Source: Nitrosopumilus sp.
Lineage (GTDB): Archaea > Thermoproteota > Nitrososphaeria > Nitrososphaerales > Nitrosopumilaceae
Direction of reading: 5' to 3'
Length of the DNA stretch: 64,000 bases
Assembly (NCBI GenBank): GCA_965214775.1
Contig: OZ243974.1
Location: forward strand, 1,248,001-1,312,000
The notes beneath the pieces were generated by a model, which was given only the letters and a program-made list of their open reading frames with translations, was not told the origin of the DNA and made no database searches. How positions within the stretch are numbered: the stretch's first letter is position 1; each line of letters begins with the position of its first letter. A program made the translations under genes and the position numbers. This document shows positions 3,775-52,730 of the stretch, in pieces.

Positions 3775-4184
3775 GATCCATAATGCCGGTACGGTGGAAT
3801 CGTCCGGCTAGCGGATGCTATGCAGTATGACGTCAAAACACGGGCCATAACTACACAATGCGGGCCGGAGTGCGGATTCGTCTCTATGTTTGCAGTCATT
3901 GCGCCATGATTTTGTACAAATCTCCCCGGAAATCACGTCCTAAAATCACGATTCCGGACAACGCCTCTGATCGGTACAGCCTGAAATAGTCAGCGATCGT
4001 ACGCCTTATCTTAGGCGGACCTAATTTCTGTATAAGACATAACCGATTTGACGCAAATTCGCTTATACATGATCCGAACCTGCCGATTTCGAATTACCTC
4101 TCTGCGTGCCTTCTGACGCTGAAGAGCCTATACTGATGATCATTGAAAATTTCGCCTGATTACACGTCTTGTGAAGGTTTATAG

Positions 4185-4378
4185 ACGCTATATGAAATCT
4201 TATCCGTATCCTGTGATATACTATTACCGTTGGGCCTGAGAGTCGATGTGATCTTACCATGTACAAGGGTGTCTTATAGACTGACTCGTAACAGCAGGCG
4301 GAAAGCAATATACCGCGCAGACGGTGAATGGGAGATTCCGCCCGGATCAGGCATTTTGATCAAAAAGGAGGTGATAAC
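4185..4378 (+). ncRNA. IS110 left non-coding end, putative bridge RNA
   Basis: About 190 nt of non-coding DNA before the IS110 recombinase. Homologous to 21404-21707. Internal ttatagac matches the element's own junction. Confidence 0.6.
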
Positions 4379-4750
4379 ATGATCAACGTAGGAATAGACG
4401 TACACAAAAAGACATGCGTTGCAGCAGTAAAGGACGACTCTGGCAAGCTGCTTGAGCGATCCAAGTTTGAGAACAGCGTTTTGGCAACAACGAATTTTGC
4501 AACATATATCAAGGAACAATACCGCGGACAGCTGCCAATAAAGGCAGTATGCGAGTCCACTGCCAACTACTGGATTATCGTACATGACACACTTGAGGAC
4601 TGCGGGATAGACACCGTGCTGGTGCATCCGGCAAAGGCCAGGGTGATAGCGCACGCCAAGATAAAGGACGACCGCGTGGATGCAAATATACTTGTCGACC
4701 TACTCAGAGCAGACATGCTGCCAGAGTCGTTTGTGCCTGACAAGCACTAC
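4379..4750 (+). pseudogene. IS110-family recombinase, N-terminal DEDD domain, truncated by a MITE
   Basis: VGIDVHKK, VCEST and KIKDDRVDA motifs, preceded by RBS aggaggtga. Confidence 0.88.
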
Positions 4751-4763
4751 AGAGAGTTGATTC

Positions 4764-6869
4764 GTACAACTTCAGGTCCTTTTTATACTGACTAGGGAAC
4801 TTTTTGCCCGGAACTTTTTGATCCTTCCGCATCTGCTGTGACAGACCCGCTACATCATCACCACACGTCCCTTGTATATGCAAGACCGGCAGCGCGCAGA
4901 CAGCAGATTATTGGCAGACGGCACCTGCAGGAAACCAGCATTGTCAGATTTGCCAGGCGTTGTTGACTGGCAGACTTGCCTACACGGCCGGATTCTTTGA
5001 CATGAAGCTACGGGTTACGCCGTCCCGTAGGCGCCAGACGGATCATGTTGTTGTAGGAGCTGCTACTGGTACGACGGCCATCCGGTTCCGGCGTACCGCT
5101 CCTCCTTCACTGCCTGCGTCATCATCGACTACAGGCGGCCACACCGGCGGCGGCCCGGGACACTCAAAGACGCTGTATTTTGTACCGTCCGTATTGACAA
5201 GCGAGGACAGCAGGCGCGCATTATCATCATCATCTCTTGCTTCTGCAAAGACATCCCAGCCCGGATTCCGCAGGTATTTCAAGAGTCCGCCGGCAGGATG
5301 TATATTCTGCTTGCGACATGTCATCGAAAATGTCAGCAGCGCAGAAGCCGTCTTTCTTCCCCCGTCAGTTACAATCTTGTGACGTGCATTGCGTTGTGGT
5401 ATGATCCCGTCGCGTATGCACCGCTCCGTATCGTTGTTGTGCAGCGGCATTCCCCGATGCGCCAGACACGTAAACATGTTATGTATGGCGTTTAGCAGGT
5501 GTGTACGCACGTGAACGTCCTCATACGGGTTGATTATTTTGTATACTTCCCTGGAAAGCTCCATGCATGTAAGCGGCGCAAGCGTCTTGATTTTATCTAT
5601 CTTCCTGTAGAATTCCAGCAGCAAGTCATACCTTTTCTCGTTATCGCCTTCGGGCATCTTTACTGCAAGCTTTTCTGCATACGCCAGAAGGTGCCTCCAA
5701 CACCTCTGGATTGTCACAAAGAACAGCTTGTACTGGGCCAGTCCGTCTACGACTATGGGAGTCTTGGGATCCAGCCATCCAAAGTGCGTGTGCAGTACCT
5801 CAGAGGACCGGGAATCTGCAAATACCACAAAGCACGCCCCCTCGCAGTTGAGCACCCAGACGTATCCCATGTGTCCGTCGCCGCGCTTAAATCCGGTCTC
5901 GTCCATCTGTATCCACGGCCTGCCCGCAATGAATGACTGTATGCGTTGTATCATGTTTTGTTGAATCGCCTCTGCCACTGCGTGCCGGGCGGCAGTCACG
6001 GTATTTGGGGCCATCTTGAATCCAAACATATACTGAAAGTACTCTGCAATGTCCTCGTCTGTGTTTCCCTTCTCAAAGAACATCATGATTAGAGAGAGTG
6101 AGACGGGCCCAAGTGACGTGCCGCTTAGAAACGGGGTAGCTGCGACATGCACGGTATTGCACTGTGGACACACCGCGTTTTGGATGATGGCATTGGCAGT
6201 GAGCATGCGCATGGAGTCATCTAGGTCGTTTACAAGCTTGTGGATCGGCTTGAGCATCCGTAACTGGATGTTGCACTTTGGGCATATTTTGGAGCCAAGA
6301 TCGTACCTTAATGTCATTGATGGTCGGTTGCCGTGCGATGTACCATGGTGTCTGCACGGAGGGCCGCGTTTCTTGCCCCGAGCAGCATCGCCGGGACTGC
6401 CGCCGGGATCCTCGCCCCTTTTCTCCCTGAACTTTCTTCTGGCATCATTGTATAATGACGGCGTGGACGTGGGCATGTTGGGACTCTCGTACAGGGCAAG
6501 CCTTGCCTGAAGCTTAGAGTTCTCCTTCTTGACATCAGCATTCTCCTTCTTGACAATAGAGAGTTCTTTTTCCAGCCCGGAGATCTTCTCATCCTGCTCC
6601 ATGATCATGACAAGTGCCTTTCCAGGATCCGTACAGTGTGCAAGCACGGCTTTGGAGTCCATATGTTACATCAGACAGGCAAGATCAAAAAAGATTTCCA
6701 TCGAAATTCTTTGACCAAGATGCCGATATTATGTCACTCCCGTAAATTCCAAACCTGCAATATCTGATCACAAATGTCTGATGTTCAGCCATGTTCGCAG
6801 GGGCATCTGATCATAAGATGCTGCCCAAAAATGTTTGACTGTCAGTATAAAAAGGACCTGAAGTTGTAC
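4764..6869 (-). mobile_element. IS66-family element
   Basis: Long TIR gtacaacttcaggtcctttttatactgac, 8-bp TSD gttgattc. Confidence 0.9.
5043..6662 (-). CDS. IS66-family transposase (TnpC-like)
   Basis: Coiled coil, zinc finger, and MDETG, GYVWV, QRCWRHL, NNDTER motifs. Confidence 0.9.
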   Translation of the reverse strand: MDSKAVLAHCTDPGKALVMIMEQDEKISGLEKELSIVKKENADVKKENSKLQARLALYESPNMPTSTPSLYNDARRKFREKRGEDPGGSPGDAARGKKRGPPCRHHGTSHGNRPSMTLRYDLGSKICPKCNIQLRMLKPIHKLVNDLDDSMRMLTANAIIQNAVCPQCNTVHVAATPFLSGTSLGPVSLSLIMMFFEKGNTDEDIAEYFQYMFGFKMAPNTVTAARHAVAEAIQQNMIQRIQSFIAGRPWIQMDETGFKRGDGHMGYVWVLNCEGACFVVFADSRSSEVLHTHFGWLDPKTPIVVDGLAQYKLFFVTIQRCWRHLLAYAEKLAVKMPEGDNEKRYDLLLEFYRKIDKIKTLAPLTCMELSREVYKIINPYEDVHVRTHLLNAIHNMFTCLAHRGMPLHNNDTERCIRDGIIPQRNARHKIVTDGGRKTASALLTFSMTCRKQNIHPAGGLLKYLRNPGWDVFAEARDDDDNARLLSSLVNTDGTKYSVFECPGPPPVWPPVVDDDAGSEGGAVRRNRMAVVPVAAPTTT

Positions 6870-6974
6870 GTTGATTCGAAATTAGCAAACTCTGATTATC
6901 TGTGAACGAATCTGCATAAATCAGCTCAAGACACCAACAAAATACAGATTATCTGTGAAATTATTCGAAAAATT

Positions 6975-7067
6975 GTACGAGGTCACCTACCCCCATCAGT
7001 CAGGCACAAATTAGCATGAATGATTGTAATCTTCGTGCCTAGCTAGCAAGGGGACGTGACCACATAC
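6975..7067. mobile_element. MITE family D (93 bp, GTA termini)
   Basis: Matches 18095-18187 and is related to 21600-21692. TSDs of 8-9 bp. Confidence 0.85.
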
Positions 7068-7104
7068 GAAAAATTTGTTTGGTTTCTAATTTCGGATCAT
7101 CTCT

Positions 7105-7808
7105 CAGGCTGCATGTCACATACAGCGTGGGAAGCATCAGAAGAATCCTGCGCACGATGGGATTCTCGCTAAAGACGTCAACCACCAAGCTGGCAGATGC
7201 TGCCGACGCAAAGTCGGTAAGACAGCGGCAGAGGGATGCAAGAACCGAGATTGCGCTTGCAAAAAGGCGCGGATTCAGGATAACCGTACAGGACGAGTCG
7301 ATATTCGTCAGTACGGGAAGGGACGGCAGAAAGTTCTGGTCGCCAGTGGGGGACAGGATCGAGGTGCAACGATCCGGCAGGAGGGAACGCGTCGTGGTAT
7401 ACGGAACGGTTGCAGACGACGGAACCAGGCTGATGCGCACATACGACAAGTTCAACAGCATAAACTTTGTGCGTTATCTCAAGCAGGCGCACAGAAAGTG
7501 GGGAAGGGTTCTGATTGTGATGGACAACGCATCACAGCACAAGACCGGAAGGGTCCGCAGGTACCTGAGGAAAAATCCCGACGTTGTCCTGCTGTACCTG
7601 CCGGTAGCCAGGCCGGAGCTGAGCGCCATAGAGCCAATCTGGAAGGATGCCAAGTACAGGCTGGTCACATCTGCCTTTTACGATACGGCAGATCACCTCA
7701 AAAGAGCCGTCTCAGAATACTTTAGGACGTGTTCCATCAAGGTTGACATCTACAAATATCTTGAGCGCCGCGTGTAATCAGGCGAAATTTTCAATGATCG
7801 TCAGTATA
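7105..7808 (+). pseudogene. IS630-family transposase, 5'-truncated, with right end
   Basis: QDES, MDNASQH and PELSAIEPIW motifs. The right end recurs inverted at about 4130-4166. Confidence 0.85.
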
Positions 7809-7810
7809 GT

Positions 7811-7902
7811 CGCAAGAGTTTACCCTTCAGGCGACACTACTGACTGGAGTCCTCATGATCACGCCTGCCACGCCGTATCTCAGGTGAGAGGTAAACTTGT
7901 AC
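7811..7902. mobile_element. MITE family F
   Basis: Ends gcaagagtttacc and ggtaaacttgtac. Inverted homolog at 49235-49324. Confidence 0.7.
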
Positions 7903-7904
7903 GC

Positions 7905-9053
7905 CTAGTCGGCGCCATGCGTGCGCGAAAGCACGTACGGCCGCTCGTTTGGCTCTAGCGACAGCATGACCTTTTCCGTATCAAAAACAAACTCGCCCAG
8001 ATATGTGCCGTCCTGGTAGACCGTAAACGGCACGCCCTTCCAGTCTGTGGGCTGGTCAAACGACACGGTCAGGGGCTGGTCAAACACCGCGTTGTCCAGC
8101 CCGTCTGAGACGGTAATCTTGATGCGCTCGATTCGCGGCGGCGGGTGATCCGCTGCCACCTCGACGACCACCTGCGCGTTTGCCCTTTCCCTGGCATACA
8201 GCGTTATTTCGTTCATTGGGGACACCCAAAAGTCGCGGCCTGCAATGGATTCCACGTCCTTTCGGAACTCGCCCATGTCGTACCACCCGTACCCCTCCGG
8301 CAGTCCTATGTTGTGGTATGTCAGTATGATCCACGAGGTTCGCCTTAGCGCCTCATCAAGAACCGGCTCCAGATCGCCGTTGTCGTTTATGCATGACTCG
8401 CACGGTTCATAATCCTCCGACTTGAAATGTATGCTCTGCATGGGCAGTGCCTGCAGGGCAAACCAGTTGTCCGGCTCTGCCCTGTCATCTGCAATGTTGT
8501 GGAACCTGTCCGGATTGGTTGTCTGCAGCCTGCCGCTGAGAAATCCCGCATCCTCCAGGGCCTGCTGTGTCTCCCCCTCAGATCCGGCGTTTCGCGGATA
8601 GCCGTAGGCGACCGGCTTTAACCCCATCCATACCATGGCATCAAAGCATGCCTGAAACGACTCTAGTGCCTCCCCGTATGACATTATGTCGTGGTTGACA
8701 TGGTTGTGGCCGTGGCCGAAATAGCCAGAACCGCCGGGAATCAGATCCGTCAGCAGGTAGATCAGATCGACATCATGTGGATTGCTGTAGACGGGAACGC
8801 CATGATAGCTGTTCCCGGTCACCATCTCGTATCCGATGGTCACGCCGTGCTCATCGGCGTGGCTGGCTGCCTCCGGGATGTCTAGGGGGCGGCCGTCATA
8901 CGTGATTGATACTGCAGCAGTATGGTTGTCAAACCACTTTGTGACTCGTGCCTCTGACGGCAGGTCTCCGTCTGTAACCACGTGCCACTGCATCCTCTCT
9001 GCCGTGGCCTCTTTCACGCATGCCGGGCTCCAGTCCCCTCGGATCACCGGCAC
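7905..9053 (-). CDS. Polysaccharide deacetylase-like protein (N-terminus possibly disrupted)
   Basis: VSITYD, HGHNH, YGYP, ILTYH and DFWV motifs of the NodB fold. Confidence 0.65.
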   Translation of the reverse strand: MPVIRGDWSPACVKEATAERMQWHVVTDGDLPSEARVTKWFDNHTAAVSITYDGRPLDIPEAASHADEHGVTIGYEMVTGNSYHGVPVYSNPHDVDLIYLLTDLIPGGSGYFGHGHNHVNHDIMSYGEALESFQACFDAMVWMGLKPVAYGYPRNAGSEGETQQALEDAGFLSGRLQTTNPDRFHNIADDRAEPDNWFALQALPMQSIHFKSEDYEPCESCINDNGDLEPVLDEALRRTSWIILTYHNIGLPEGYGWYDMGEFRKDVESIAGRDFWVSPMNEITLYARERANAQVVVEVAADHPPPRIERIKITVSDGLDNAVFDQPLTVSFDQPTDWKGVPFTVYQDGTYLGEFVFDTEKVMLSLEPNERPYVLSRTHGAD

Positions 9054-9600
9054 CAGACCGCCTGTGCACCGTACATCCCCTAGTGCTGCTCCAGACTCTA
9101 TCTGTTGCCTGATGCTAGAGGGAGGAGGGGGGGGGAAGTGGAAGAGAGAGGGTGTGTGTCTGCCCAGCCGTATAACGGTACCATGGCGAGGAGGGGGAGA
9201 AGGAGGAGGAGGAGGACACCGGCAAGCAGCAGGAACGGCACATGTGGCTGGGACGTGGTGTGACAGAGAGCCATCTTGCCGTCAAACCGCCATGGGGGAT
9301 TCATCGTACTCACTTTCTGCACCTGTGGGATCCAAAAAATAGTTCGCCCCCCTTATTTGACATCATACTCCTCTCCTGTCTGCCCGTCAATAACGGTTTC
9401 CCCCTCCTTGGGCATCTTTCTGACAAATGCCTGCGCGGGCGTCTCCTGGTTTCCCCGGTTCGGCGACGTGCGGGCCTGCAGACTTGCTAGTCTACATTGT
9501 TTCGAATCTGGAGCCGTCTTGTGGGGAACTTCCGGGAAGGCTGCAGGCACGAAATTTATAATAAATTAATATTCATCAATTTTCAGGTATAGGCATCAGA

Positions 9601-10758
9601 ATGTTGACTCACAAAAGCCCGCAAATCTCAATAATTGTCCCAACATACAACGAATCCCAGAATATCTTGAAAATTTTAAAGTCCATTAAGGAAAATATTC
9701 CAAAAGAGATCTCTGCCCAAACAATTGTTGTAGACGACAATTCGCCTGATGGGACCGGAAAAATTGTCGAGGACTATATCTTTGGCATTAAAAAAATTGC
9801 CGAAAACACAATCGATGTAATCCATAGAAAAACAAAAAACGGGCTGTCCGCTGCAACTCTAAACGGAATTCAAAGCGCAAAGGGCGAGACAATCGTCGTA
9901 ATGGACTCTGATTTTTCACATCCTCCACAGATTATACCCAAGATGATTGATGCTTTCAAGCGATACCAATGTGATATTGTAGTGGCCTCGCGATACATGA
10001 CTGGCGGAAACATACGTGGATGGACTGCCAAGAGAAAATTAACGAGCAAAGTCGGAACAATGATTGCAAAAAGGGGACTAGGCGTCAAGATAAATGATCC
10101 AATGTCTGGATTTTTTGCATTTAAAAAAAACGTCATTAACGGATTAAATCTTGACACGTTCGGCTCCAAGCTTCTGCTGGAAATTCTTGTCAAAACCAAG
10201 GATATCAACATTAAAGAAATCCCATATACTTTTGAAGACAGAAAGTTTGGTTCAAGCAAATTCGACATCTCGACTGTCATTGATTACCTGAAATCAATTT
10301 GGAAACTGTACAAAAACGATAAAAAAGAATCATCAAATGAAAAACGAAAATCAGTGCATTTTCTCTCAAAAGCTGCCAAATTTTTTACCGTGGGCGCATC
10401 TGGCGTTGGCGTAAATTACCTGGTTTCGATGATTTTTACTTCTGGACTGACCGACTTTTGGTATGTTCACGCAAATATTTTTGGCATAGTCGCATCAATC
10501 TCGACAAATTTCATCCTAAACAAGGTCTGGACTTTTGAGGACAGGGACTTTTCACGAAAGAGGCTGCTTGAGCAATACGGAAAATTCTCCCTGTTCAGCT
10601 CCCTGGGGGCAATAGTCCAAGTCGGAACCGTTTACTGGTTGGTCGATTCCTACAATACGGAATATTCGATTGCACTGCTGTCTGCAATCAGCATAGCTGC
10701 CTTTGGAAACTTCCTCTTAAACAAGAGGCTAACATTCAAAGAAAGATTTTGGGGTTAA
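9601..10758 (+). CDS. Dolichol-phosphate mannosyltransferase (GT2) with GtrA domain
   Basis: VPTYNE, VDDNSPDGT, MDSDFSH and DPMSGFF motifs, plus C-terminal GtrA-like TM segments. Confidence 0.9.
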   Translation: MLTHKSPQISIIVPTYNESQNILKILKSIKENIPKEISAQTIVVDDNSPDGTGKIVEDYIFGIKKIAENTIDVIHRKTKNGLSAATLNGIQSAKGETIVVMDSDFSHPPQIIPKMIDAFKRYQCDIVVASRYMTGGNIRGWTAKRKLTSKVGTMIAKRGLGVKINDPMSGFFAFKKNVINGLNLDTFGSKLLLEILVKTKDINIKEIPYTFEDRKFGSSKFDISTVIDYLKSIWKLYKNDKKESSNEKRKSVHFLSKAAKFFTVGASGVGVNYLVSMIFTSGLTDFWYVHANIFGIVASISTNFILNKVWTFEDRDFSRKRLLEQYGKFSLFSSLGAIVQVGTVYWLVDSYNTEYSIALLSAISIAAFGNFLLNKRLTFKERFWG

Positions 10759-10867
10759 CAATAACCGTTTCATGAAATGAACTTTCCCAAATTTGGGAAT
10801 CGCAACCCTTTGCATCCTTTAAAACAAAACAAAACAAAAAGAATGAACTGTTCGTCCCTTCTACCTA

Positions 10868-11521
10868 CTACTCGAAGGTGGAAGTAGTAGAGGTCTGGGA
10901 CGAAAGTCCGGTTGAAGATGGTACAGACGGGAATTTGTCCCCAATCTGCTGCTCAGCTACTGCAGACGCCTCTTGCAGAATCTTTTCTGTCTCTTCATTT
11001 GAAACATCAGACTCCATGCTAAACGAGTCTCCTGCAAGTGAATCCATCATGAGCCCATTAAGTGTCTGAGTCATGGCATTCAGTTCCGAATCTGCCTCTG
11101 GCATGAACCTTCCTAGCGATGACTTTAATCCCTTCATCGTAGACATTGCCGGCCCGATTGCTACCATTGCATCTCCTAGATCATGGATGGTTGTCAGCCT
11201 CAATTGGACTTGTTCTAATGACATCCTTGCATTGCCGAGCATCTTTGTAACTTTACGAATTTCAGCCAGTTCGTTAGACAAAACTCTGCTTGTGCTAGTA
11301 TCATGTTGTTGCATTGCAGCCACGACACGCTGAAAGAGTTGCGCATCTCTTTCGTGCAGCTTGTTTAGCATGGTGTCCATCTTTGAGATCTGGACCTGTA
11401 GTTTGTTTACTGCAGTCTGAATTCGCGGTTTTAACGCACCCTGAGGCTTTACTGCTTCACGGAGTTTGCCAGTTACGCTTTGGGTCTCCTGACGAGCCCA
11501 ATTCTTATCGAAGTTTGGCAT
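10868..11521 (-). CDS. cdvB: ESCRT-III/Snf7-family cell division protein (CdvB paralog)
   Basis: Helical Snf7 pattern (LSNELAEIRK...LEQVQLRLTT) typical of thaumarchaeal CdvB. Confidence 0.85.
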   Translation of the reverse strand: MPNFDKNWARQETQSVTGKLREAVKPQGALKPRIQTAVNKLQVQISKMDTMLNKLHERDAQLFQRVVAAMQQHDTSTSRVLSNELAEIRKVTKMLGNARMSLEQVQLRLTTIHDLGDAMVAIGPAMSTMKGLKSSLGRFMPEADSELNAMTQTLNGLMMDSLAGDSFSMESDVSNEETEKILQEASAVAEQQIGDKFPSVPSSTGLSSQTSTTSTFE

Positions 11522-11625
11522 GGTTGCTACTTTAGAAGTTTAGTCTTAATGGACGGTGTATATTTAGATCGACTTTGAACTAAATTTAGCTAACAAACTA
11601 TATGCCTCTTTAACGTCTAAACCCT

Positions 11626-12420
11626 GTGGCCAAAATTGCTGTCTTTGACTCAGGATTGGGCTCGTTGTCCATTATTAACCCGATAAGAAGACTTTGCAAG
11701 GCCGAGATCATCTACTATGCAGACTCTAAAAACTTCCCATACGGTAAAAAAACCAGGGCCCAGCTTGGCAAGGCCATCAATCTGGCATTAAACAGGCTGG
11801 AGCAGCATTTTCACCCTGATTTGATAGTCATGGCATCAAACACCCCCAGTCTTGTCCTGAACATATCCAAGCCAAACGTCCTTGCTGTAAAGCCGCCCCT
11901 TTTGGAAGCCAAAAAAGTTTCCAAGACAAAAAGCATTGGAATTCTTGCAACAAAGTCAGCCATTCAAAGCAGAGGGGAGACGGAGGAGGGTGGCAGTAGT
12001 AGTGGCGGCAGCCTGTCTCGCTACATTCGCATGTGTAACCTTCCTGACTCGTATCAAATACACAAAATTAACTGTTCTAACCTTGTAAGTCTTGTCGAGA
12101 GCGGAAAATTCCTGACAAATGAAGGTTATTGCAGAAAAATAATCAAAGATGAACTATCTGAAATAATTTCCAAAAAAAACATTGACACTGTAACCTTATC
12201 AAGCACACACCTCCCATTCCTGAAAAAACTACTTCGGCAGGAATTTCCCGATATGGAATTCATCGATCCTGGAGGACAGGTTGCACAGAAAGTATTTGAA
12301 AAAATCAAAGACAGGCAATCAAAAAGAAACTCGTTGAAGATTTTTACGTCTGGAGATCCGGCAGCCTTTCATAACAAGCTGTTAAAACTAAAAATCAGAT
12401 CTACGGTCAGATCATTTTGA
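11626..12420 (+). CDS. murI: Glutamate racemase-family protein
   Basis: VFDSGLG, FPYG, ASNT and LSSTH motifs. Ser replaces the usual catalytic Cys at both positions. Confidence 0.75.
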   Translation: MAKIAVFDSGLGSLSIINPIRRLCKAEIIYYADSKNFPYGKKTRAQLGKAINLALNRLEQHFHPDLIVMASNTPSLVLNISKPNVLAVKPPLLEAKKVSKTKSIGILATKSAIQSRGETEEGGSSSGGSLSRYIRMCNLPDSYQIHKINCSNLVSLVESGKFLTNEGYCRKIIKDELSEIISKKNIDTVTLSSTHLPFLKKLLRQEFPDMEFIDPGGQVAQKVFEKIKDRQSKRNSLKIFTSGDPAAFHNKLLKLKIRSTVRSF

Positions 12421-13894: not shown

Positions 13895-13930
13895 GAATGA
13901 TATCCCGACTTGCCCAATTAAATATCTAGA

Positions 13931-14527
13931 CTAGCGGTTGTTCCTTGTTGCAGAAACTATTGTTACCGGATTTCTTGCAAGCATCATCGTACCCGTGCTT
14001 GTTTTTCTGCTCTTTGAAATAGTTACTTGGGTAACATCCACTGATGCAAATTCGATCTTCTCTAGCACCTTTAGCACCGAATACAACGTTTCAATTAGTA
14101 TTGTTCCGATAACAATTCTGCCGCCCGGCTTGAGCTTGTCTCTGCACAACTCAACAATATCGGCCGTCTCACCGCCTGTTCCGCCTACAAAAATTGCATC
14201 AGCCGGTTCCAGCTCCTTGATCTTCTCTTTTGCATTTCCAAGCACAAGGGACACGTTTGAAAGATTGAACTTTTGGATGTTTTTCTTTGTTATTTTTATT
14301 GCATCCTCATCAAAATCAATTCCGATTACCCTGCCTGTTTGCTCAATTTGTATTGCCGCCTCTACCGTAACTGATCCGCTTCCACATCCGATGTCGTATA
14401 CCGTCTGCCCCGGAAGCAGTCTTGCCTTGCTAATTTGAATTGCTCTTACTTCCTCTTTTGTTATCGGAACTTTTTCTGTCCTCTCAAACATCTCATCAGG
14501 AATGCCCGGCGTTTTAAAACTCCACAT
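13931..14527 (-). CDS. cbiT: Cobalt-precorrin-6B C15-methyltransferase
   Basis: GIPD, ITKEEVR, DIGCGSGSV and ARNPV motifs. Confidence 0.92.
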   Translation of the reverse strand: MWSFKTPGIPDEMFERTEKVPITKEEVRAIQISKARLLPGQTVYDIGCGSGSVTVEAAIQIEQTGRVIGIDFDEDAIKITKKNIQKFNLSNVSLVLGNAKEKIKELEPADAIFVGGTGGETADIVELCRDKLKPGGRIVIGTILIETLYSVLKVLEKIEFASVDVTQVTISKSRKTSTGTMMLARNPVTIVSATRNNR

Positions 14528-14560
14528 ATCGTTACATTCTCCTAGTTATTTTTAAAATAA

Positions 14561-15037
14561 TTATATGTTGATTCCAGCAGACGCACTTCCAGAATGGACT
14601 AGCGTATGGCTTACAATCCATGTAAACAAATACAAAAAGACATAGCTGCCTATTGCCTGTGTGACAATTTTTTTCCTGTCTGATGAGGGCAGCTGCATTT
14701 TCATTCCTTTTGCAATGGCTATCGTAACAACAAAGACAACTATCATAAATCCGATTGATGCCCATCTCCTGTCCTCTCCCTCAATATCTTCAAAGATGAA
14801 CGTTGCAGCAGTACCTGCAATGACAGCTAATGCGACCCTTAGCCAAAATAACTTGTTTAGTTTTTTATCCTTGTCACTTTTTTCGCCATGGCTTATATGG
14901 GGTTCTGGCGGCAATTCTGTTTCGGGCTTTTCGACATCTGGAGCGGCCTCCTCCCCTTCAACCTCCTTTGGGAGCTCTTTCTCAGATTTTTTAGGCTCTG
15001 GTGTTGGTTTTGATCTTCTCTTTTTGAATTTTGCCAA
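14561..15037 (-). CDS. Hypothetical membrane protein (3 TM)
   Basis: Charged N-terminus and three hydrophobic segments, co-oriented with the cbi genes. Confidence 0.7.
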   Translation of the reverse strand: MAKFKKRRSKPTPEPKKSEKELPKEVEGEEAAPDVEKPETELPPEPHISHGEKSDKDKKLNKLFWLRVALAVIAGTAATFIFEDIEGEDRRWASIGFMIVVFVVTIAIAKGMKMQLPSSDRKKIVTQAIGSYVFLYLFTWIVSHTLVHSGSASAGINI

Positions 15038-15140
15038 GTAAATTTCTAGCGTGACTCCACCAAAGCTTGTTTAAAATCTTTGGCAATTTGTTGGCATTTT
15101 TTGTCGCAAGAGTATAATTTTGGAGAAGCGATCCTAATTT

Positions 15141-17081
15141 ATGACACTTGCCGGCATCGAGCTTCGGTATCTTGTTGATACCATAACCGAACAAGCAGGG
15201 GGCTACTATGTCAGCAACATCTATGGAATTACCTGCGATAGCATCCTTTTGAAACTTCATCATACAGAAAAGCCTGATCTGTTCCTTATGGTTTCTACAA
15301 TGGGAGTGTGGTTGACGTCAGTCAAAATTGAACAGATTGAGCCAAACAAGTTGCAAAGACGGCTAAGAAGCGACATTCTCAGACTGAAACTAAAAGAAAT
15401 CAGGCAGATTGGTTCAGAACGAATAGCATATTTTGATTTTGAGGGGTTTGGAAAAAAGTTTGTTCTGGTTGCCGAATTTTTTGGCGATGGAAACATCATT
15501 TTGTGCAATGGGCAAATGAAGGTTCTTGCATTACAGCATTCCGTTGATGTAAGACATAGGAAATTGGGTGTCGGGCTAGAGTACGTTCCACCCCCGCAAA
15601 ACGGATTGGATATTTTTGAGATAAGTGAAAAGAACTTTCATGAATTAAAGCAAACTGACTTGATCGCAGTCAAATGGCTGGGCCGTACGTTGGGACTGCC
15701 AAAAAAATATGCAGAAGGGATTTTCAAAATTGCCAACCTTGATCCAAAGGTTAAGGGAAGCCATTTGACTTTTGACCAAATCAAGATCATCTTTCAAACT
15801 ACCCAGCAAATTGTAACTGATGTTGCTACTGGCAACCATAAACCTGTAATCATAAAATCCGACAAAACCGAGGTTTGTCCGATAACCTTTAACAAATCAG
15901 ACGAATCATGCGTTGAAGTTGACAGCTTCATTGCAGGATTGGACAAAGTTTTTACAGACTCGCTGGTTAGCCGGGGAAAGACAGCCCGATCAGCCGTTCC
16001 AAATAAAAAAATTCAGGAATTAGAGTCGCAACTTTCTGAGCAAGAAAAAGCAGTCAAATTAGTCAAAGAGAGATCTGACTCTATTACAAAAGTAGCAAAT
16101 TCGTTGTTTGAAATGATCTCTGTCGGCATTACGTCAATTCAGGATGCTAGAGCCATTGAAAAACTAGCAAACTTAAATGCGGAATTACTGACTGAAAAAG
16201 GCATTTCTTTTGTTGTAATTGCCGGTGAAAAAATAAAAACTGACTATGAATCATCGTTACAATCAATTGCATCTGCTCTATTTGATGAAGCAAAGCACCA
16301 AGCAAGAGCCATCGATTCGATTGAAGAGATAAAAAATAGAACGCAAAAGAGACTGGAAAAACTACTAGCAAAGACTGAATCTGAAGAAAATTCAATCACT
16401 GTTTCTAGTATTAGGAAAAAAAATTGGTACGAGCGTTATAGGTGGTTTGTTACCACTGACGGATACCTGGCTATTGGCGGACGTGATGCAGCTTCAAATT
16501 CTGCGGTTATAAGAAAGCATCTTGGTAACAGTGACAAAGTTTTCCATGCAGACATTTTTGGCTCCCCGTTCTTTATACTAAAAGACGCAAATGTGTCTTC
16601 CAGCATTTCTATGAACGAAGTCGCACATGCAACTGCTTGTTTTAGCAGAGCCTGGAGGGAAGGACTGTATGGCGTTCGCTCGTATTGGGTCAATCCCGAT
16701 CAGGTAAAAAAGTCGGCACCCAGCGGGGAATTCCTGCCAAAAGGATCCTTTACAATCGAAGGGCAGCGAAATTTCATCAAAGCGCAGGCCTTGAAGCTGG
16801 CAGTGGGAATTTTGCCGCAAGATGATGACTCTTTTGCACTGACATGCGGCCCTGTTGACCCAATCAAAAAAAATTCCGTTCTTTATGCCGTTATTGAGCC
16901 GCATGGGATTGAAATGGCCGAGGCTGCCAAAAAAATTAAAGCTGAATTTTCAAAACTAAACGAGGATGTTGCAAAAAACATCCCTCTTGATGATTTTGTC
17001 AGGGTTTTGCCTGCAGGCAAAAGCCAAATAAGAGAGGTTAGTTACGGGGATCTCCCTCCCTCTCGGATCTCTCTTTTATAA
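15141..17081 (+). CDS. rqcH: NFACT/NEMF-family ribosome quality-control protein
   Basis: EFFGDGNIIL, WYERYRWF, GGRDAASN, FHAD and SAPSGEFLPKGSF motifs. Confidence 0.88.
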   Translation: MTLAGIELRYLVDTITEQAGGYYVSNIYGITCDSILLKLHHTEKPDLFLMVSTMGVWLTSVKIEQIEPNKLQRRLRSDILRLKLKEIRQIGSERIAYFDFEGFGKKFVLVAEFFGDGNIILCNGQMKVLALQHSVDVRHRKLGVGLEYVPPPQNGLDIFEISEKNFHELKQTDLIAVKWLGRTLGLPKKYAEGIFKIANLDPKVKGSHLTFDQIKIIFQTTQQIVTDVATGNHKPVIIKSDKTEVCPITFNKSDESCVEVDSFIAGLDKVFTDSLVSRGKTARSAVPNKKIQELESQLSEQEKAVKLVKERSDSITKVANSLFEMISVGITSIQDARAIEKLANLNAELLTEKGISFVVIAGEKIKTDYESSLQSIASALFDEAKHQARAIDSIEEIKNRTQKRLEKLLAKTESEENSITVSSIRKKNWYERYRWFVTTDGYLAIGGRDAASNSAVIRKHLGNSDKVFHADIFGSPFFILKDANVSSSISMNEVAHATACFSRAWREGLYGVRSYWVNPDQVKKSAPSGEFLPKGSFTIEGQRNFIKAQALKLAVGILPQDDDSFALTCGPVDPIKKNSVLYAVIEPHGIEMAEAAKKIKAEFSKLNEDVAKNIPLDDFVRVLPAGKSQIREVSYGDLPPSRISLL

Positions 17082-18094
17082 TCTCAATTTTTTTGATGCA
17101 CTGCGATGTCGTCCTGCACAAATTCTTTTCCGGAACCTTCCGATCAAATTTTTGAAGCCCTTCTCAAGAATCGATCAAAAGCTTGAGATCCAAGGTGGGC
17201 CCAGCCAACTGGTCATATGCGTAAGAATTTACCCCCTCCCGAAAATACGGCGTGGTAGGCACGGTGTTCAAGGCTCCGGCCAGCAGTGCCGCCTGAGAGG
17301 TGATCCGAAATTAGAAATCGAGCGCCCCGTCCGCAGCCGTCCTGCTGCCGCCACTCATTAGGCCGCAGCAGCGATTCTGGCCGGCACCCTATCGTTGACC
17401 AGTCCGCACACGATACTGTTGGCAAGGTCGTACTTTTTGAGTGGGTTTCGGTACCGGTCGCCCATGATCCTGTATGTTTTGACCCTGCGTATGGTGTTCT
17501 CCACGTACACACGTATCTTTGAGTGCGTGATATTGTACTCTTTTTGCGCATCGGTGAGCTTGCCGCCCGGTTTTTTCTTGATGGAAAGATGATGTCCGTG
17601 CCTGCATCCACTAACTGTGCTCCCTGGTATCCGCGATCCATGTAGTGACGAATCTTGTGCTCTTTTGTTGTTGTTGCGGCGCATCACCATCCCCGCTGCC
17701 GCCGGGACACTTTTTCTCCTTCTCCTTCTCCTTTCTTTGGTCGTACCGGAACGTGGGATGCCTCATCTGGTACATCGTGATGTCGTTTACGCGTCCCGGA
17801 GAGTGGGGTGTCTTGTGCACTATGAGTCCGTGGATGTTGGTGGTGTACTGAACCTTGACTGTGTGCCTGCCTGCCTTGCCTGAATAGTGCGATTTCTCCA
17901 TATCCTTTCTCTTGGGCCTGCATATCTTTTGTTCTGAGGCATCTGTCAGGCAGACAAGTTCTGGCAATACGTCCATTAGTTCCTCTACTGAGGATTATTC
18001 TCTTGGTGCCCGAATAGATCTTTTCGGGGATCGACAGGCACCCCTTGAGAACCGGCGCAATCCTGTCTATCGAGCGCGAGACTGATGCCTGCCC

Positions 18095-18187
18095 GTACGA
18101 GGTCACCTACCCCCATCAGTCAGGCACAAATTAGCATGAATGATTGTAATCTTCGTGCCTAGCTAGCAAGGGGACGTGACCACATAC
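18095..18187. mobile_element. MITE family D
   Basis: 9-bp TSD tgcctgccc. Confidence 0.85.
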
Positions 18188-18241
18188 TGCCTGCCCTATT
18201 CCGAACATGGCAGATGCAACATCCTGTGTGACGTACGTCCT

Positions 18242-18351
18242 GTAGTAGAACAGGGACAGCAGAAGACTCTCCTTCAGAAAGTAACATTCTACAGATTCCG
18301 CGACCGCCAAACCAAGTAGTAGAACAGGGACAGCAGAAGACTCTCCTTCAG
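18242..18351. repeat. Repeat-insert-repeat (36+38+36)
   Basis: gtagtagaacagggacagcagaagactctccttcag at 18242-18277 and 18316-18351. Confidence 0.9.
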
Positions 18352-18675
18352 GCTGAGGGCAGTCGGGCGTCCTGCACCGATGATGTCACGCTTGCGGTCT
18401 TTTTTGGCAGAAAGCAGAAAGCCTCTTTCTGTCCATCTTTGGGTGTTTTTTTGCCACCTTTGCATACAACAAATCAAATTCGGGGGCAGTCATGCCGGCA
18501 AACATCTTCTTGAATGTCCCGGGGGTTTTTTGACAATTTATCAAATAACTTCATGAATTATGTACATTTTACTAGCGTTTGGATCGGGTTGGTGTACATT
18601 ATGTGTCTGTTTGATCAAAATTTGCTAATTTCGAATCAACTCTCAGATGACGATGTATGCTCGAATCCATCTACT

Positions 18676-18838
18676 GAGAGACGATTCGAAACTAGAAACC
18701 GTGCAAATGCCCGGATTTTTCTGTATCTTTGTCAAGTAATTTTACAGACAGACAACCTGCCATTTGTGATCATTTCAATCGATTTGATGCAAGTTTGCTT
18801 GTACATGATCTGAATCTGCCAATTTCGAATCAGCCCTC
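18676..18838. mobile_element. MITE family A2
   Basis: Degenerate family-A TIRs. Homologous to the split MITE at 1533/4103. Confidence 0.7.
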
Positions 18839-19014
18839 TGGCAATGCCAGTCATCGCCGGGATGGCTGCAGCGCCGTCCAAGTTCTCTATCACGAGCTTA
18901 TTCGGGTTCTGGCAAATGCCAGTCATCGCCGGGATGGCTGCTTGCAGACGACGGAACCAGGCTGATGCGCACATACGAGTTCTGGCAAATGCCAGTCATC
19001 GCCGGGATGGCTGC
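18838..19014. CRISPR. CRISPR-like mini-array with three 36-bp repeats and two spacers; no cas genes nearby, probably ectopic
   Basis: gttctggcaaatgccagtcatcgccgggatggctgc at 18906-18941 and 18979-19014, degenerate copy at 18838-18869. Spacers of 36 and 37 nt. Spacer 2 equals 7410-7446. Confidence 0.65.
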
Positions 19015-20611
19015 AGCACCCGTATGCAGGCGGGGCGTATGTGTGGTGCGTGGGGACCGGGGCGGTCTGGTTTATCGCGTACACGCGGACGTTGTCATAC
19101 CAGTTGTGGTGATCCCAGTCCGTTCCCCATATGTCGCGCATGTATAAGACGATGGTGATCGCGTCGCGCCCGGAGGCGTGTCCGGTTATGTCCGTCGTGT
19201 ACGTCTGCCATCCGGTGTCTGTCGTGCCACCAAGCACCAGGTATGAACGGTGCAGCCAGTTGCCCGAGTCCGCATCCAGTATCGCCATCCGAGTGTTGGT
19301 CACGGAGCTGTCTGGGGTTGCGCCGATGGCCTTGTAGTCGTAGGACAGCACGAGCCTCTGCCCGGACACGTCTAGGGAGGATACGTCGACGGTCTTCTGC
19401 ATGCCAGCATATACCACGATCTCGTCCTCCGTGTGCACGTGTGCCGCAGTCCGGCCGTCAACGGACTGCCTGCCAATCTCGTACTCTGTCGCGGTGCCCC
19501 AGTACGACCAGCCCTCAAGCGAGGAATCAAAGGTGTCGTTGAGCGGCATCGCGTGCCTTGTCTGGTGGACCGCCTCCGTCGGTAGCATCTCGACGGTGCC
19601 CGAGCCGGCCCCCTGCCGCACCGCGTATCCGTCAAAGATCCATTCGGAGTGGCCCGTGATGTCGACCGAGCGCAGGATCAATGTATGGCCGTGCGGCGGG
19701 CGCGAGGCCTCTATGAAAAGGGTCACCTCGTCCAGCTGCGAGCGCGACCAGTCCGGCGTCAGGACTACCGTCAGATCGGAGGCGTCATGCGGGGCCGCAT
19801 GCAAGTGCGGGCGCTCGTATGATGCCAGGACGCCGCCGCCCTTGGATGCTGGCCAGGATTCCGTAAAGTCGGATCGATGCCCATCTTCTCGATCCAGCAG
19901 TGCAGGGCCGCCCTTGGATGCTGGCCAGGATTCCGTAAAGTCGGACGCGGCGTACCTTGAATACCCCCCGTCGCGGAGGTATGCGCCGACGTATGGATCC
20001 GTCTCCAGCCCCACATCCAGCACGATGTCGCGGCCGCGCAGCTCCGCGGCGGGGAATGACTTGAAGAGGTGCATTGTGCCGTGGCCGGAGGTAGTCGACC
20101 AGAGCGCGATGTCAGATAGCGACTGCGGATTCATGGTCGCTACCACCGCGCCGTCTCCCCCCACCATCTGGTACTGCCAAGCCGTGTCCAGATAGGACGG
20201 ATCCACTGTTACCGTTGAAGTGGCAGTTACCGTGTTGCCCGACGAGTCGGTTGCGATCCACAGCACGGTAGTCGTGCCAAACCCTAGCCTTGCCGTCGTG
20301 CTGTGGCTCCCAGTCACGTTGTTTGTCACGATGACGGCGGGATCGTCCGCGTTGGCCACCGAGGCCGTTCCCAGATCTACCGTGGTGAGGATTCCCTTGG
20401 CGGCCACCTTTGTATCCGGCGGGACGGTAAGGACGGGCAATTCGCCGCCTGCCTCGTCGGCGGCCCTCATGCCAGACCAATCATAGGTTACAAGAAACGA
20501 TACGACTATCGCTGCGGCCAGTACGGCTACCAGCACTGCGGCTGTCCTCTCAGGGCGCAAACGCCACGGCGTGCGGCTCGCATCCGGCGTTACGGAATGG
20601 GATTCCGACAT
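18923..20611 (-). CDS. Membrane-anchored surface protein (HYR/Ig-like and carbohydrate-binding-like domains), C-terminus disrupted
   Basis: N-terminal TM and HYR-like GTTTVLWIATDSSGN. High GC. The ORF runs into the mini-array. Confidence 0.6.
   Translation of the reverse strand: MSESHSVTPDASRTPWRLRPERTAAVLVAVLAAAIVVSFLVTYDWSGMRAADEAGGELPVLTVPPDTKVAAKGILTTVDLGTASVANADDPAVIVTNNVTGSHSTTARLGFGTTTVLWIATDSSGNTVTATSTVTVDPSYLDTAWQYQMVGGDGAVVATMNPQSLSDIALWSTTSGHGTMHLFKSFPAAELRGRDIVLDVGLETDPYVGAYLRDGGYSRYAASDFTESWPASKGGPALLDREDGHRSDFTESWPASKGGGVLASYERPHLHAAPHDASDLTVVLTPDWSRSQLDEVTLFIEASRPPHGHTLILRSVDITGHSEWIFDGYAVRQGAGSGTVEMLPTEAVHQTRHAMPLNDTFDSSLEGWSYWGTATEYEIGRQSVDGRTAAHVHTEDEIVVYAGMQKTVDVSSLDVSGQRLVLSYDYKAIGATPDSSVTNTRMAILDADSGNWLHRSYLVLGGTTDTGWQTYTTDITGHASGRDAITIVLYMRDIWGTDWDHHNWYDNVRVYAINQTAPVPTHHTYAPPAYGCCSHPGDDWHLPELVCAHQPGSVVCKQPSRR
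19835..19945. repeat. Repeat-insert-repeat (39+33+39), in frame
   Basis: gccgcccttggatgctggccaggattccgtaaagtcgga occurs twice with period 72. Confidence 0.9.
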
Positions 20612-21111
20612 CTTCCCAGCCCCAAACTATGCGCCGCCGTATTGCCTGACTTTGACATATTTTTTAGCAACGGGATCTCGTTTTTATCTTTTTTGCGTAG
20701 GCGCCGTTTATCTATTGTGCCGAAATCATTTCGCACCGGCATAAGGAGGCTGGCAAGGACTGCATTATGCTGTACCGATCAGCAAAACCGATGACAAGGC
20801 TTGGAGAGAGACGTGTCAAATACGTAACGAGTCAGTGCGGCAGGGGAACATGGTAATACGCATTTCCGTAAACAAAAGAAGTGGGGGATGGCTGGGCATG
20901 CGCAGATGGCAGTACAAACTGCAGTGGAGGCGCATGAGACAGTATTCTCAGGTCCGGATACAGCCCAAAGAACTTGTCGACGAGCTCCTCTTGAAAGTTT
21001 GCCTGGCGCATCTCGTCCTCCGCGCTGACTTCGGGACATAACACCTCGAAGAATGCTGTCATATCATGCATTGATTACTCCGGGCTGCTCACTCCGCTCA
21101 GCGGATCCTCA

Positions 21112-21250
21112 GAGAGGTGATCCGAAATTAGAAGCCGTGCGAATTTTTCAAGTAATTTCACAGATAATCTGTATTTTGTTGGTGTTTTGAGCCGTTTTAT
21201 GCAAATTCGTTCACAAATAATCAGAGTCTGCTAATTTCGAATCAACTCTC
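21112..21250. mobile_element. MITE family A
   Basis: TIRs as in the element at 17296-18643. Confidence 0.85.
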
Positions 21251-21403
21251 AGGCTGATGTGCAGGCTCAGAAAGACAAACACCCGCAGGAGGTTCGGTCT
21301 GCAAGGCCATAGGATGGAACCTTGAGGTGCTAAACAGGATGGAGTGTGCTGCAAGGATTGGCGTGCCGGTGGAGGCAGCCTGAGGTGAATTAGGCGACAA
21401 CCC
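21251..21403 (+). mobile_element. 3' remnant of an IS5-like element carrying the MITE-B terminus
   Basis: ORF tail KAIGWNLEVLNR...EAA* followed by gaattaggcgacaacccc. Confidence 0.5.
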
Positions 21404-21707
21404 CCATTTTATCACCTCCTTTTTGATCAAAGTGTGTGTGCCCAACTGAACGGAAAACCCCCATTCGCCTCGATTATGTGGCATTTCGTCGTCCGTCTAC
21501 TCTGAGCCAGTCTCTTACGCGCCCTCATGTGTGGCAAGTTTACTTCGGCTCTTGGGCCCAACACGGATAATATGGCGTCCGCTACGGATAAGATTTGATG
21601 TATGAGGTTACGTCCCCTTGCCGGCTAGGCACGGAAATCATAATTGTACATGCCAATTCATGCCTGATTGATAGGGGTAGGTGACCACATACGATTTGAT
21701 ATAACGT
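21404..21707 (-). ncRNA. Second IS110 left end, putative bridge RNA (interrupted by MITE D at 21600-21692; recombinase lost)
   Basis: Colinear similarity to 4185-4381, including tttgatcaaaaaggaggtgataa-ATG. Confidence 0.6.
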
Positions 21708-21861
21708 CTCTTACCATCCACCCGCCATCTTGGGATTCTACTTGGGCACAAAATTCCAACCCAAAGACGATCTGAGTTTCATGTCCCAAAGATTACACAG
21801 AACCTGCAAGGCCAATCTTTATATATTTTATGTAACAATAATTGCCTATAGGTAAATTATC

Positions 21862-51220: not shown

Positions 51221-51450
51221 CTAGAAATCTTTTTTCGGCAAAACTTTGGAGATTTTGTATGTGGCTGGATCCCTTGATAAGAGTCTGGGCGTGCGGGACA
51301 ACTCATCACTGCCAGCCAGGCCCGGGTTGGGCGCGCATAACTGTGATGTAACCATATGTGTCTCAAAAACAAAATTCAGATGGTGCCAAAATAAATTGCG
51401 ATGCAAACAAACAGACGCTATATGAAATCTTATCTGTATCCTGTGATATA

Positions 51451-52558: not shown

Positions 52559-52730
52559 TAGGAAAGGATGTGTGTGTGACATGAATGTTAGTATTCAGTA
52601 GTTCCGATTGTGGCCTGAAAATAAAGCAAATTGACAGATTTTTATGATCATTTGGATCTATAGGGGGTACTTTTAGCAATTTCTCCATGACAAAAAGTGG
52701 CAGGGCCGCTCAAAAGCCGTACGGACACAG

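Follow-up and report, generated by a model that had tools for sequence, protein, structure and literature searches.

Two left ends of insertion sequences of the IS110 family, found in a 64,000-nucleotide stretch of the genome of Nitrosopumilus sp. (the window, positions 1248001-1312000 of a single contig of 2,833,656 bases), raise the question of whether the non-coding end of such an element encodes the guide that selects its own insertion site. In both copies, designated element 1 and element 2, the insertion junction is repeated within the non-coding end, and an initial annotation had interpreted the internal repeats as naturally reprogrammed target guides. The analysis described here indicates that the loci are very probably fragments of an archaeal IS1111-type element of the IS110 family, in which a bridge (or seek) RNA predicted from the left end directs target choice. 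RNA-guided target choice is already known for the family and its mechanism is unchanged by these results; what is new is this member, with its uncommon layout and its natural series of retargeted copies.

According to the accessible parts of the published reports, each loop of the IS621 RNA carries an 8-9-nucleotide left guide on its 5' strand and a 4-7-nucleotide right guide on its 3' strand, and the CT core is read on the coding strand (Durrant 2024, PMC11208160; Hiraizumi 2024, PMC11208158). Elements of the IS1111 type have subterminal inverted repeats, left and right extensions of 7 and 3 nucleotides, and the reverse order of guides; ISMtsp17, which has an upstream region, and ISHvo10 and ISAcp5, in which the regions upstream and downstream are both long, are given as exceptions to the usual layout, and IS4321 and IS5075 insert in the inverted repeats of Tn21-type transposons (Siddiquee 2024, PMC11187229). 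In archaea, a survey of 2,835 genomes counted 662 homologues of the recombinase, which fall into several clades together with bacterial proteins; the accessible part of that preprint treats the proteins and does not mention guide-flank relations in this lineage (Vaysset preprint, 10.1101/2024.06.21.599552). A literature search found no paper on these relations in this lineage, with Durrant Supplementary Table 5 and Siddiquee Supplementary Fig. 2, which may list it, lying outside that search.

Junction repeats and the intact element

The repeats were exact, as the initial annotation had reported: ttatagac occurs at 4179-4186 and 4274-4281 in element 1, and gtaagagac at 21714-21706 and 21518-21510 on the minus strand in element 2. 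A third junction, aaacagac, is present at 51409-51416. Alignment showed that the colinear scaffold claimed to surround the internal copy holds in both elements. The first 4-5 nucleotides of the repeat (ttat or gtaag) are flanking DNA, the following ag is the core and the final ac represents the first bases of the element. The annotation had itself stated that a junction inside the element would refute its reading; this applies to the invariant AGAC, whereas the variable part is flanking DNA. The designation archaeal was retained because the small subunit rRNA scored 1459 bits with the archaeal Rfam model and 1097 bits with the bacterial model.

A blastn search of the host genome with window positions 4150-4795 as the query returned more than 20 left ends, with homology starting at the equivalents of 4179-4183; the homology of the copies spans AG-ACGC to CATATGGG-AG. 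The number of left-end pieces in the host genome was 40 by nhmmer and 34 by a covariance model (R1) constructed from 22 left ends. The model had matches in 19 of the 151 genomes examined from this family, a tally that includes the host genome and an unpublished genome, G132, that was only counted, and the recombinase was present in 25 of 201 genomes of the class. Element 1 belongs to the subfamily labeled F1 and element 2 to F2; a third subfamily, F3, is also present.

A full copy, at genome positions 2746644-2747977, is 1334 nucleotides long (1336 with the core) and consists of AG-ACGCT, a 10-bp subterminal inverted repeat, a non-coding left end of about 196-199 nucleotides, the gene, a 57-nucleotide right end, the inverted repeat and GGG. 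The 359-residue protein matched the Pfam families DEDD_Tnp_IS110 (3.3e-28) and Transposase_20 (5.8e-21), and the full-length gene is open in three host-genome copies. Intact copies are located at genome positions 2746642, 2751230 and 2030284. When the protein was aligned with the PDB chains of IS621 and ISCro4 (E ~1e-11), residues D7, E59, D98 and D101 coincided with the conserved D, E, D and D, and S264 with a serine of the ...YESGS stretch. The serine aligned with S264 would correspond to the published catalytic S241, assuming a two-residue offset in numbering.

The copies start as flank-AG-ACGCT-ATATGAAATC and their right ends read GATTTCATAT-GGG, the terminal extensions being AGACGCT before the left repeat (7 nucleotides) and GGG after the right repeat (3 nucleotides); by the IS1111 convention, the core AG constitutes the first two nucleotides of the left extension. 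The right end ...CATATGGG is followed by AG in 13 of 14 cases and by TG in one. Uninterrupted sites were also found in the genome: there are seven copies of GGTTTAT-AG-ATCTCC (GGTTTATAGATCTCC), all in the same surroundings as element 1, and three of GCTTAT-AG-ATCATGG (GCTTATAGATCATGG). These sites have a single AG, and insertion must therefore have occurred without target duplication at the AG core, the site-specific mode, at a dinucleotide shared by target and element, that characterizes the IS110 family.

The internal copy follows the left flank

Agreement between the guide and the five nucleotides preceding the core was compared with that obtained after shuffling. In the host genome, 26 left ends had both a junction and a guide, and 19 remained after repeated flanks were removed; the copy at 369543, with no recognisable guide, was left out. 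Across these 19 distinct flanks, 81 of 95 positions agreed with the copy's own guide as compared to 42.3 when shuffled, and none of 20000 shuffles scored as high. The F1 copies alone gave 45/55 against 27.1 (18 of 20000 shuffles). Sixty left ends were then added from the genomes of relatives, giving 85 matches aligned to the covariance model, of which 78 included the junction and the guide in full; removal of duplicates left 71. Agreement over these 71 pairs was 296/355 as compared to 124.8 (0/20000), and over the 52 further pairs from the relatives only, 216/260 as compared to 89.6. The fit was perfect in 38 pairs, 4/5 in 21 and 3/5 or less in 12. At least six specificities precede AGAC in the host genome (TTAT, CAGT, AAAC, TTAC, GTATG and GTAAG), while a single guide in genome G226 is found at four loci whose flanks have only CCGGC-AG in common.

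Could such repeats arise by chance in AT-rich, repeat-rich DNA? A 9-nucleotide direct repeat within 300 nucleotides was reached by 12-24 of 200 mononucleotide shuffles of single loci. However, a scan of 17 other loci that made no use of structure placed the longest direct repeat at one homologous position, 98-116 nucleotides before the ATG, in 12 of them, and neither the host genome set nor the 71-pair set was equalled in 20000 permutations. The probability that chance explains the repeats is practically negligible.

Three copies, at genome position 2169386 and at loci L084 and L085 of G237, have chimeric guide sets in which a CAGT-type strand for the right flank is combined with a TTAT-type strand for the left flank, and all are located at CAGT-type left flanks. 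They may be recombinants between sister copies or intermediates in retargeting.

Predicted fold of the left end

The left end is predicted to fold into a closing helix, P1, that encloses two arms, each consisting of a stem, an internal loop and a hairpin, with the target arm preceding the donor arm. In the model alignment of 76 distinct sequences, P1 was paired in 90.7%, the outer and inner stems of the target loop in 96.8% and 97.3%, and the inner stem of the donor loop in 92.7%, values obtained from an alignment fitted to the covariance model, which favours the fold. Slid registers were paired in 29-46%. Folding and covariance modelling of the ends, suggested in the initial annotation as a check, revealed compensatory changes in 17 of 28 pairs and a covariation score of 0.310 as compared to 0.186 for shuffled alignments (0/500). 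RNAalifold recovered the stems of the target loop. Folds of single sequences were no more stable than those of shuffles (z scores of 1.18 and -0.15), so the structure rests on covariation and not on energy. Three G-U pairs, conserved in 68, 65 and 65 sequences, are compatible with the sense strand only, and the RNA would consequently be read from the strand of the gene.

The internal copy lies in a loop of this fold, which bears on the possibility that the recombinase, without any RNA, recognizes a DNA motif (the invariant AGAC and its neighbours) that is repeated at the end and inside the element. The invariance of AGAC in most copies and the fact that no RNA was observed would be in accord with protein binding, but 1) the five variable nucleotides co-vary with a flank outside the element, 2) one protein, whose copies are 92-97% identical, cannot read six different words, 3) the segment is in an internal loop of a fold maintained by compensatory changes and G-U pairs, and 4) homologous recombinases need RNA, according to the accessible parts of Durrant 2024 (PMC11208160) and Siddiquee 2024 (PMC11187229). 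We consider recognition by the protein alone very unlikely.

It is likewise highly improbable that the left end specifies an IS621-like RNA from the opposite strand, or a regulator in the 5' untranslated region of the recombinase mRNA with no role as a guide. On the opposite strand the conserved G-U pairs would become C-A, and, by our reasoning, the guide order of IS621 would not be restored by an antisense RNA either. The left end does double as the 5' leader of the gene, and a 12-nucleotide palindrome and a Shine-Dalgarno-like GGAGGTG are situated 3' of the fold, as might be expected of a regulator, but a sequence with a purely regulatory role would not vary in step with both flanks.

The palindrome is perfect, reads TTTTGATCAAAA in element 1 (4354-4365) and TTTGATCAAA in element 2 (21431-21422, minus strand), and lies between the fold and the GGAGGTG that precedes the ATG. 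The palindrome is conserved in F1, F2, F3 and G036. Its run of T could serve to terminate transcription in an archaeon; alternatively, it could be a protein-binding site.

The right flank, the donor arm and a possible handshake

In the target loop, the 5' strand reads as the reverse complement of AG plus the right flank. Right ends were sought in two ways. The reverse complement of left-end bases 8-17 was searched for at 29 loci, with an exact match at an element-like distance in five (four in the host genome and L075 of G036), a match with two mismatches at L062 of G220, and near-matches of no definite place at the remaining 23. The pattern ...GGG+AG with a partial inverted repeat was searched for at 24 loci of relatives and gave usable right ends at six. 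No F2 right end was found with the pattern GATTTGATAT; the sole gene-bearing F2 copy is truncated and carries a miniature inverted-repeat transposable element (MITE).

In 15 elements, 10 from the host genome and 5 from relatives, 44 of 60 right-guide positions fit the flank as compared to 28.1 after shuffling (0/20000). Locus L063, one of the six, whose right end seems to belong to an outer nested copy, and genome copy 1124124, with the same context as 181545, were omitted. In the case of element 1, the cognate empty site reads AG-ATCTC and the 5' strand predicts AG-ATCAC. Guide-target covariation, which the initial annotation had wished to see examined with the right guide included, thus extends to both sides, and the proposal of naturally reprogrammed guides gains support from the six or more specificities in this genome, the 52 further pairs elsewhere, the position of the guide in the loop of a covariation-supported fold and the second strand that complements the right flank.

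The 3' strand of the donor loop, ATGGGAG, is identical to the right end plus the core in the host genome and in six right ends of relatives. The 5' strand was compared with left-end positions 4-9: 76.4% of the cells were paired as compared to 66.4% after shuffling and 33-54% in slid registers, and cells with double changes numbered 65 as compared to 26.1. The pairing is clear for TACTAT with AUAGUA, CACTAT with AUAGUG and TGCCAT with AUGGCA. Moreover, 57 of 71 copies have the same base at the end of the target-loop 3' strand as at position 4 of the left end (C-C in 46, A-A in 6, T-T in 5), which is suggestive of a handshake base, although the independent changes are few. As in other members of the IS110 family, a non-coding end is thus seen to encode, at the level of sequence and covariation only, an RNA with loops matching target and donor.

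The donor-loop bases beyond the core were also considered as a handshake with the target; the assignment fit F1 and F2, but not G153, and was dropped.

Non-autonomous derivatives of about 480 bp were observed at genome positions 181545, 808417, 1124124 and 2787934 and in contigs of sequencing runs X2 and X4. They comprise the left end with the whole RNA region, a 9-nucleotide filler, TCGGCCACA, and the last ~285 nucleotides, and their guides fit their flanks. At genome positions 2787934-2788700, the right end ...CATATGGG of an internally deleted copy is joined to AG and left-end sequence, specifically the stretch directly 3' of the left-flank guide of another copy. This is a recombination at guide-encoding DNA, which is itself a half-site.

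Genomic sites matched by both guides

When the words specified by the target loop's two strands were combined, they were found to be repeated in the genome: CTTAT-AG-ATCA occurs 17 times, TCAGT-AG-TTCC 26 times, GTAAG-AG-TTTA and GTATG-AG-TTTA 62 and 16 times, and CAAAC-AG-ATTA 9 times, as compared to about 1.4 expected for a random 11-mer. In the matrix of left against right target halves, 40 of 49 cells hold 0-2 sites, and every non-cognate word above that number belongs to the CAAAC row (CAAAC-AG-ATCA 18, -TTCC 5, -CTCA 3, -TTTA 3).

The joint prediction for element 2, GTAWG-AG-TTTAC, occurs 74 times where about 0.7 is expected, each time between variable DNA and a conserved repeat. The sites are located at the terminal inverted repeats of the IS66 family, in full elements as well as in MITEs; inverted pairs are separated by 86-90 nucleotides in the MITEs (14 pairs) or by 1543-1594 nucleotides (7 pairs), and one of the long units encodes a DDE_Tnp_IS66 protein. 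The target site of element 1 is about 20 nucleotides before the start codon of an IS630-like transposase gene, of which copy L146 has DDE_3 and a helix-turn-helix (HTH) domain. TCAGTAGTTCC was found at 26 sites at the tips of at least three repeat families, with window copies at 358-368 and 52595-52605. As judged from their sequence context, then, the predicted sites are the ends of other mobile elements. This parallels the insertion of IS4321 and IS5075 in Tn21-type inverted repeats, and a preference for the ends of other transposons helps to explain the nested insertion-sequence wreckage in the window.

The empty sites also bear on the direction of cause and effect. A match between guide and flank gives no direction by itself and might be a record of flank bases captured by the element after insertion, in which case it would reflect history and not targeting. 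However, copies with one guide occupy several unrelated loci with only the half-site in common (four in G226, three in G249, and classes B and CAGT), both loop strands jointly predict words repeated 17-74-fold as empty sites, and no capture mechanism is known for the family. Capture is, in our estimation, extremely unlikely.

Classification and relation to known systems

The elements are assigned to the IS110 family in the wide sense and, by their ends and guide order, appear IS1111-like with an atypical upstream RNA. The designation IS110 in the initial annotation was correct in the wide ISfinder sense, both Pfam domains, the D-E-D-D residues and the serine being present, but did not apply in the sense of the IS621-like IS110 group, given the IS1111-type ends and guide order. 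The subterminal inverted repeat, ATATGAAATC and GATTTCATAT, has 10 bp, within the 7-17 bp (usually 11-13) of IS1111 elements and in excess of the 2-3 bp of IS621-like elements, and the extensions have the 7 and 3 nucleotides of the IS1111 type. The 5' strand of the target loop is the complement of the core and right flank and the 3' strand is the left flank and core, as in IS1111; the IS621-like arrangement, with the left-target guide on the 5' strand and the right-target guide and handshake on the 3' strand, is reversed. In contrast, the long non-coding region downstream of the gene that typifies IS1111 elements is absent, since locus L001 has 199 nucleotides upstream and 57 downstream; a long left end that contains the RNA and a short right end are IS621-like features.

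The accessible text of Siddiquee 2024 (PMC11187229) describes a DEDD recombinase and the same extensions and lack of target duplication in the seekRNA elements of the IS1111 group (ISEc11, ISXne4, IS4321/IS5075), with the complement of the top strand preceding the match to the bottom strand in the RNA, natural reprogramming among relatives and targets in the ends of other transposons. The present elements differ from the usual IS1111 element in that the RNA region is upstream (196-199 nucleotides) and the downstream end has 57 nucleotides, the inverted repeat is 10 bp instead of 11-13, and the host is archaeal. The bridge RNA of IS621, as far as the accessible parts of PMC11208160 and PMC11208158 describe it, is similarly encoded in the left end and has two internal loops, target first and donor second; each loop reads one strand per half-site with the core in all pairings, two bases after the core complement on a 3' strand match the other DNA (the handshake), and the protein has the same two Pfam domains. 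Unlike IS621, the long guide for the left flank is here on the 3' strand, the short guide for the right flank is on the 5' strand, the core on the coding strand is AG (CT on the other) and the inverted repeat is 10 bp instead of 2-3 bp. Read on the other strand, the geometry matches that of IS621 if the element is reversed end for end.

The nearest relatives on plasmids, inspected by eye, are in accord with this classification. A Rhizobium plasmid element with 37% identity has the classical layout, with a downstream non-coding region that contains a 9-nucleotide copy of the left junction, and a Haloarcula plasmid element with 38% identity has a 15-bp inverted repeat and a 9-nucleotide copy of the left junction in its upstream region. 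Model R1 reached no match in these 37-38% plasmid relatives (best E = 2). Enterobacterial plasmid matches had 24-27% identity over the C-terminal 63-71% of the recombinase.

Proposed mechanism and opposing evidence

Sequence relations, covariation of the fold, empty sites and the protein family were observed directly in this study, and the RNA itself, the circle and the chemistry are modelled on IS621 and ISEc11. In the proposed mechanism, the left end would encode a bridge (seek) RNA in the same orientation as the gene. The 3' strand of its target loop, with the sense of the left flank and core, would pair with the bottom strand, and the two bases after the core, which equal the first two bases of the element, may act like the handshake of IS621. 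The donor arm would read the element itself, its 3' strand being equal to the right end and core and its 5' strand complementary to left-end positions 4-9. A complex of recombinase and RNA would then join an excised circle (right end-AG-left end) to the target (left half-AG-right half), with exchange at the AG core and no duplication. Point changes in both strands of the target loop would have retargeted sister copies, mostly to the ends of other transposons.

Several observations weigh against this mechanism. The guide-junction co-variation claimed in the initial annotation stands overall and in F1, but not within F2 alone, where 36 of 40 positions agreed as compared to 34.8 after shuffling, which is not significant, and the single variable guide base fit the flank in 4 of 8 copies; permutation within F2 and F3 only was also not significant. 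The 12 of 71 copies that fit their own flank at three or fewer of five positions include genome 2169386, two G237 copies, L105 of G036 and L135 of G117; copy decay, turnover of the guide after insertion, or mobilisation by the RNA of a sister copy may be responsible. The right guide fails in genome copy 2634801 and at L075 of G036, and in G012 a shifted register is needed. In F1, no more than 3-4 of the 6 positions of the donor 5' strand are paired, and the outer helix of the donor loop was only 63% paired in the model alignment, which was attributed to a one-base difference in register between subfamilies that is visible in the alignment. A search of the whole window with Rfam 15 at the gathering score returned only a tRNA and DUF3800-X, with no family that matched the left ends. 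There were no RNA runs among the 24 sequencing runs listed. Contigs of four runs aligned to the full element had no circle joint of right end to left end; they contained an internal-deletion joint only, together with alternative letters at guide positions 233-237 of L001. Finally, the three window copies are dead fragments, truncated and unable to act.

RNA-guided target choice by an IS1111-type element is nevertheless the reading that we adopt. A broader scenario, put forward tentatively and on balance doubtful, is that an IS1111-type lineage of archaea like the ammonia oxidisers and of haloarchaea has moved its RNA upstream, and that a swarm of sister copies within one genome shares common donor ends and differs in target loops, each directed to the termini of other transposons (the leader of IS630-like elements, and the inverted repeats of the IS66 family and their MITEs). 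The 12 misfits would then reflect mobilisation in trans by sister RNA, and the joint at guide DNA would be a natural half-site recombination. If this scenario were true, the copies would provide a natural system in which to compare action in cis and in trans and to learn how short the guides of bridge recombinases can be (5+2+3-5 nucleotides).

The bridge or seek RNA rule can be read straight from the raw sequence of an archaeal genome. The copies form a compact natural series, with recombinases of 92-97% DNA identity, at least six specificities, empty sites and non-autonomous derivatives, that is useful for finding which guide positions matter. The combination of IS1111-type guide order with an upstream RNA bears on the movement of RNA modules between the ends of elements.

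Features of the window

The features assigned in the window are collected in Table 1. Element 1 ends at 4755, where it is interrupted by an IS66-family insertion whose open reading frame at 5043-6662 (minus strand) encodes DDE_Tnp_IS66. Element 2 has the left flank GTAAG at 21714-21710 and matches F2 5-203 by blastn at 21602-21405; its gene is interrupted directly past the ATG by another repeat. The initial annotation had stated that the third end lost its guide to IS630, in agreement with the 36 nucleotides of left end (51415-51450) found ahead of the IS630-like gene, an open reading frame at 51503-52549 with DDE_3 and HTH domains. The left flank of this copy is CAAAC (51408-51412), and two intact left ends, at 549050 and 808417 in the genome, likewise combine a CAAAC flank with a CAAAC guide.

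Table 1. Positions of the elements and of their observed and predicted parts in the window
Feature	Position	Strand	Remarks
IS630-like terminal stub, target of element 1	4128..4182	+	GGTTTAT at 4176-4182 is the left target half-site
Core dinucleotide AG, common to target and element	4183..4184	+	Homology of the copies begins here; empty sites have a single AG
Element 1 (F1), left 571 nt of the 1334-nt element	4185..4755	+	blastn to F1 1-574, 95.6%
Left subterminal inverted repeat ATATGAAATC	4190..4199	+	Partner GATTTCATAT + GGG at the right end of full copies elsewhere
Bridge/seek RNA core (predicted)	4234..4352	+	Folds, RNAalifold, pair counts over 76 distinct sequences
Closing helix P1 (predicted)	4234-4239 with 4347-4352	+	Encloses target arm 4240-4287 and donor arm 4297-4342
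Target loop 5' strand ATGTGATCT	4246..4254	+	Reverse complement of AG and right flank; right half-site predicted as AG-ATCAC
Target loop 3' strand TCTTATAGAC, the internal copy	4272..4281	+	Left flank (5 nt) + AG + AC
Donor loop 5' strand AGCAATA	4304..4310	+	Partly complementary to left-end positions 4-9 (AGC with GCT)
Donor loop 3' strand AATGGGAGA	4327..4335	+	Same sense as right end ...ATGGG + core AG + A
DEDD recombinase gene, N-terminal ~125 codons, truncated	4379..4755	+	Pfam DEDD_Tnp_IS110 (PF01548), 1.7e-18
Element 2 (F2), core AG 21709-21708 and left end down to ATG 21407-21405	21405..21709	-	Covariance model, 150 bits
93-bp MITE inside the left end of element 2	21600..21692	-	8-bp duplication ATCAAATC at 21700-21693 and 21599-21592
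Element 2 target loop 3' strand CGTAAGAGAC	21510..21519	-	Contains the 9-mer 21518-21510
Element 2 target loop 5' strand AAGTAAACT	21537..21545	-	Predicts right half-site AG-TTTAC
Third left end, 36 nt preceded by the core AG	51413..51450	+	Interrupted before the RNA by an IS630-like element

Nested wreckage occupies window positions 4756-6900 (the IS66-family insertion in element 1) and 51451-52560 (the IS630-like insertion in the third copy). Element 1 lies in an IS630-like leader and was cut by an IS66-family element, and the third copy was cut by an IS630-like element, so that these families insert into each other. The 93-bp MITE has window copies at 21600-21692, 18095-18188 and 6975-7067, and there are many more in the genome. 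The repeat that interrupts element 2 past the ATG (window position 21404 downward) begins GGGGTTGTC... Its end also adjoins class-B target sites (GGGGTTGTCCAAAAAATTTC...GCTTAT-AG) at genome positions 2726180-2726222, and it is therefore yet another mobile element used as a target. The DUF3800-X RNA match, unrelated to the IS110-family elements, is at window positions 34622-34715 (minus strand) and scored 49.5 bits as compared to the gathering score of 38.2.

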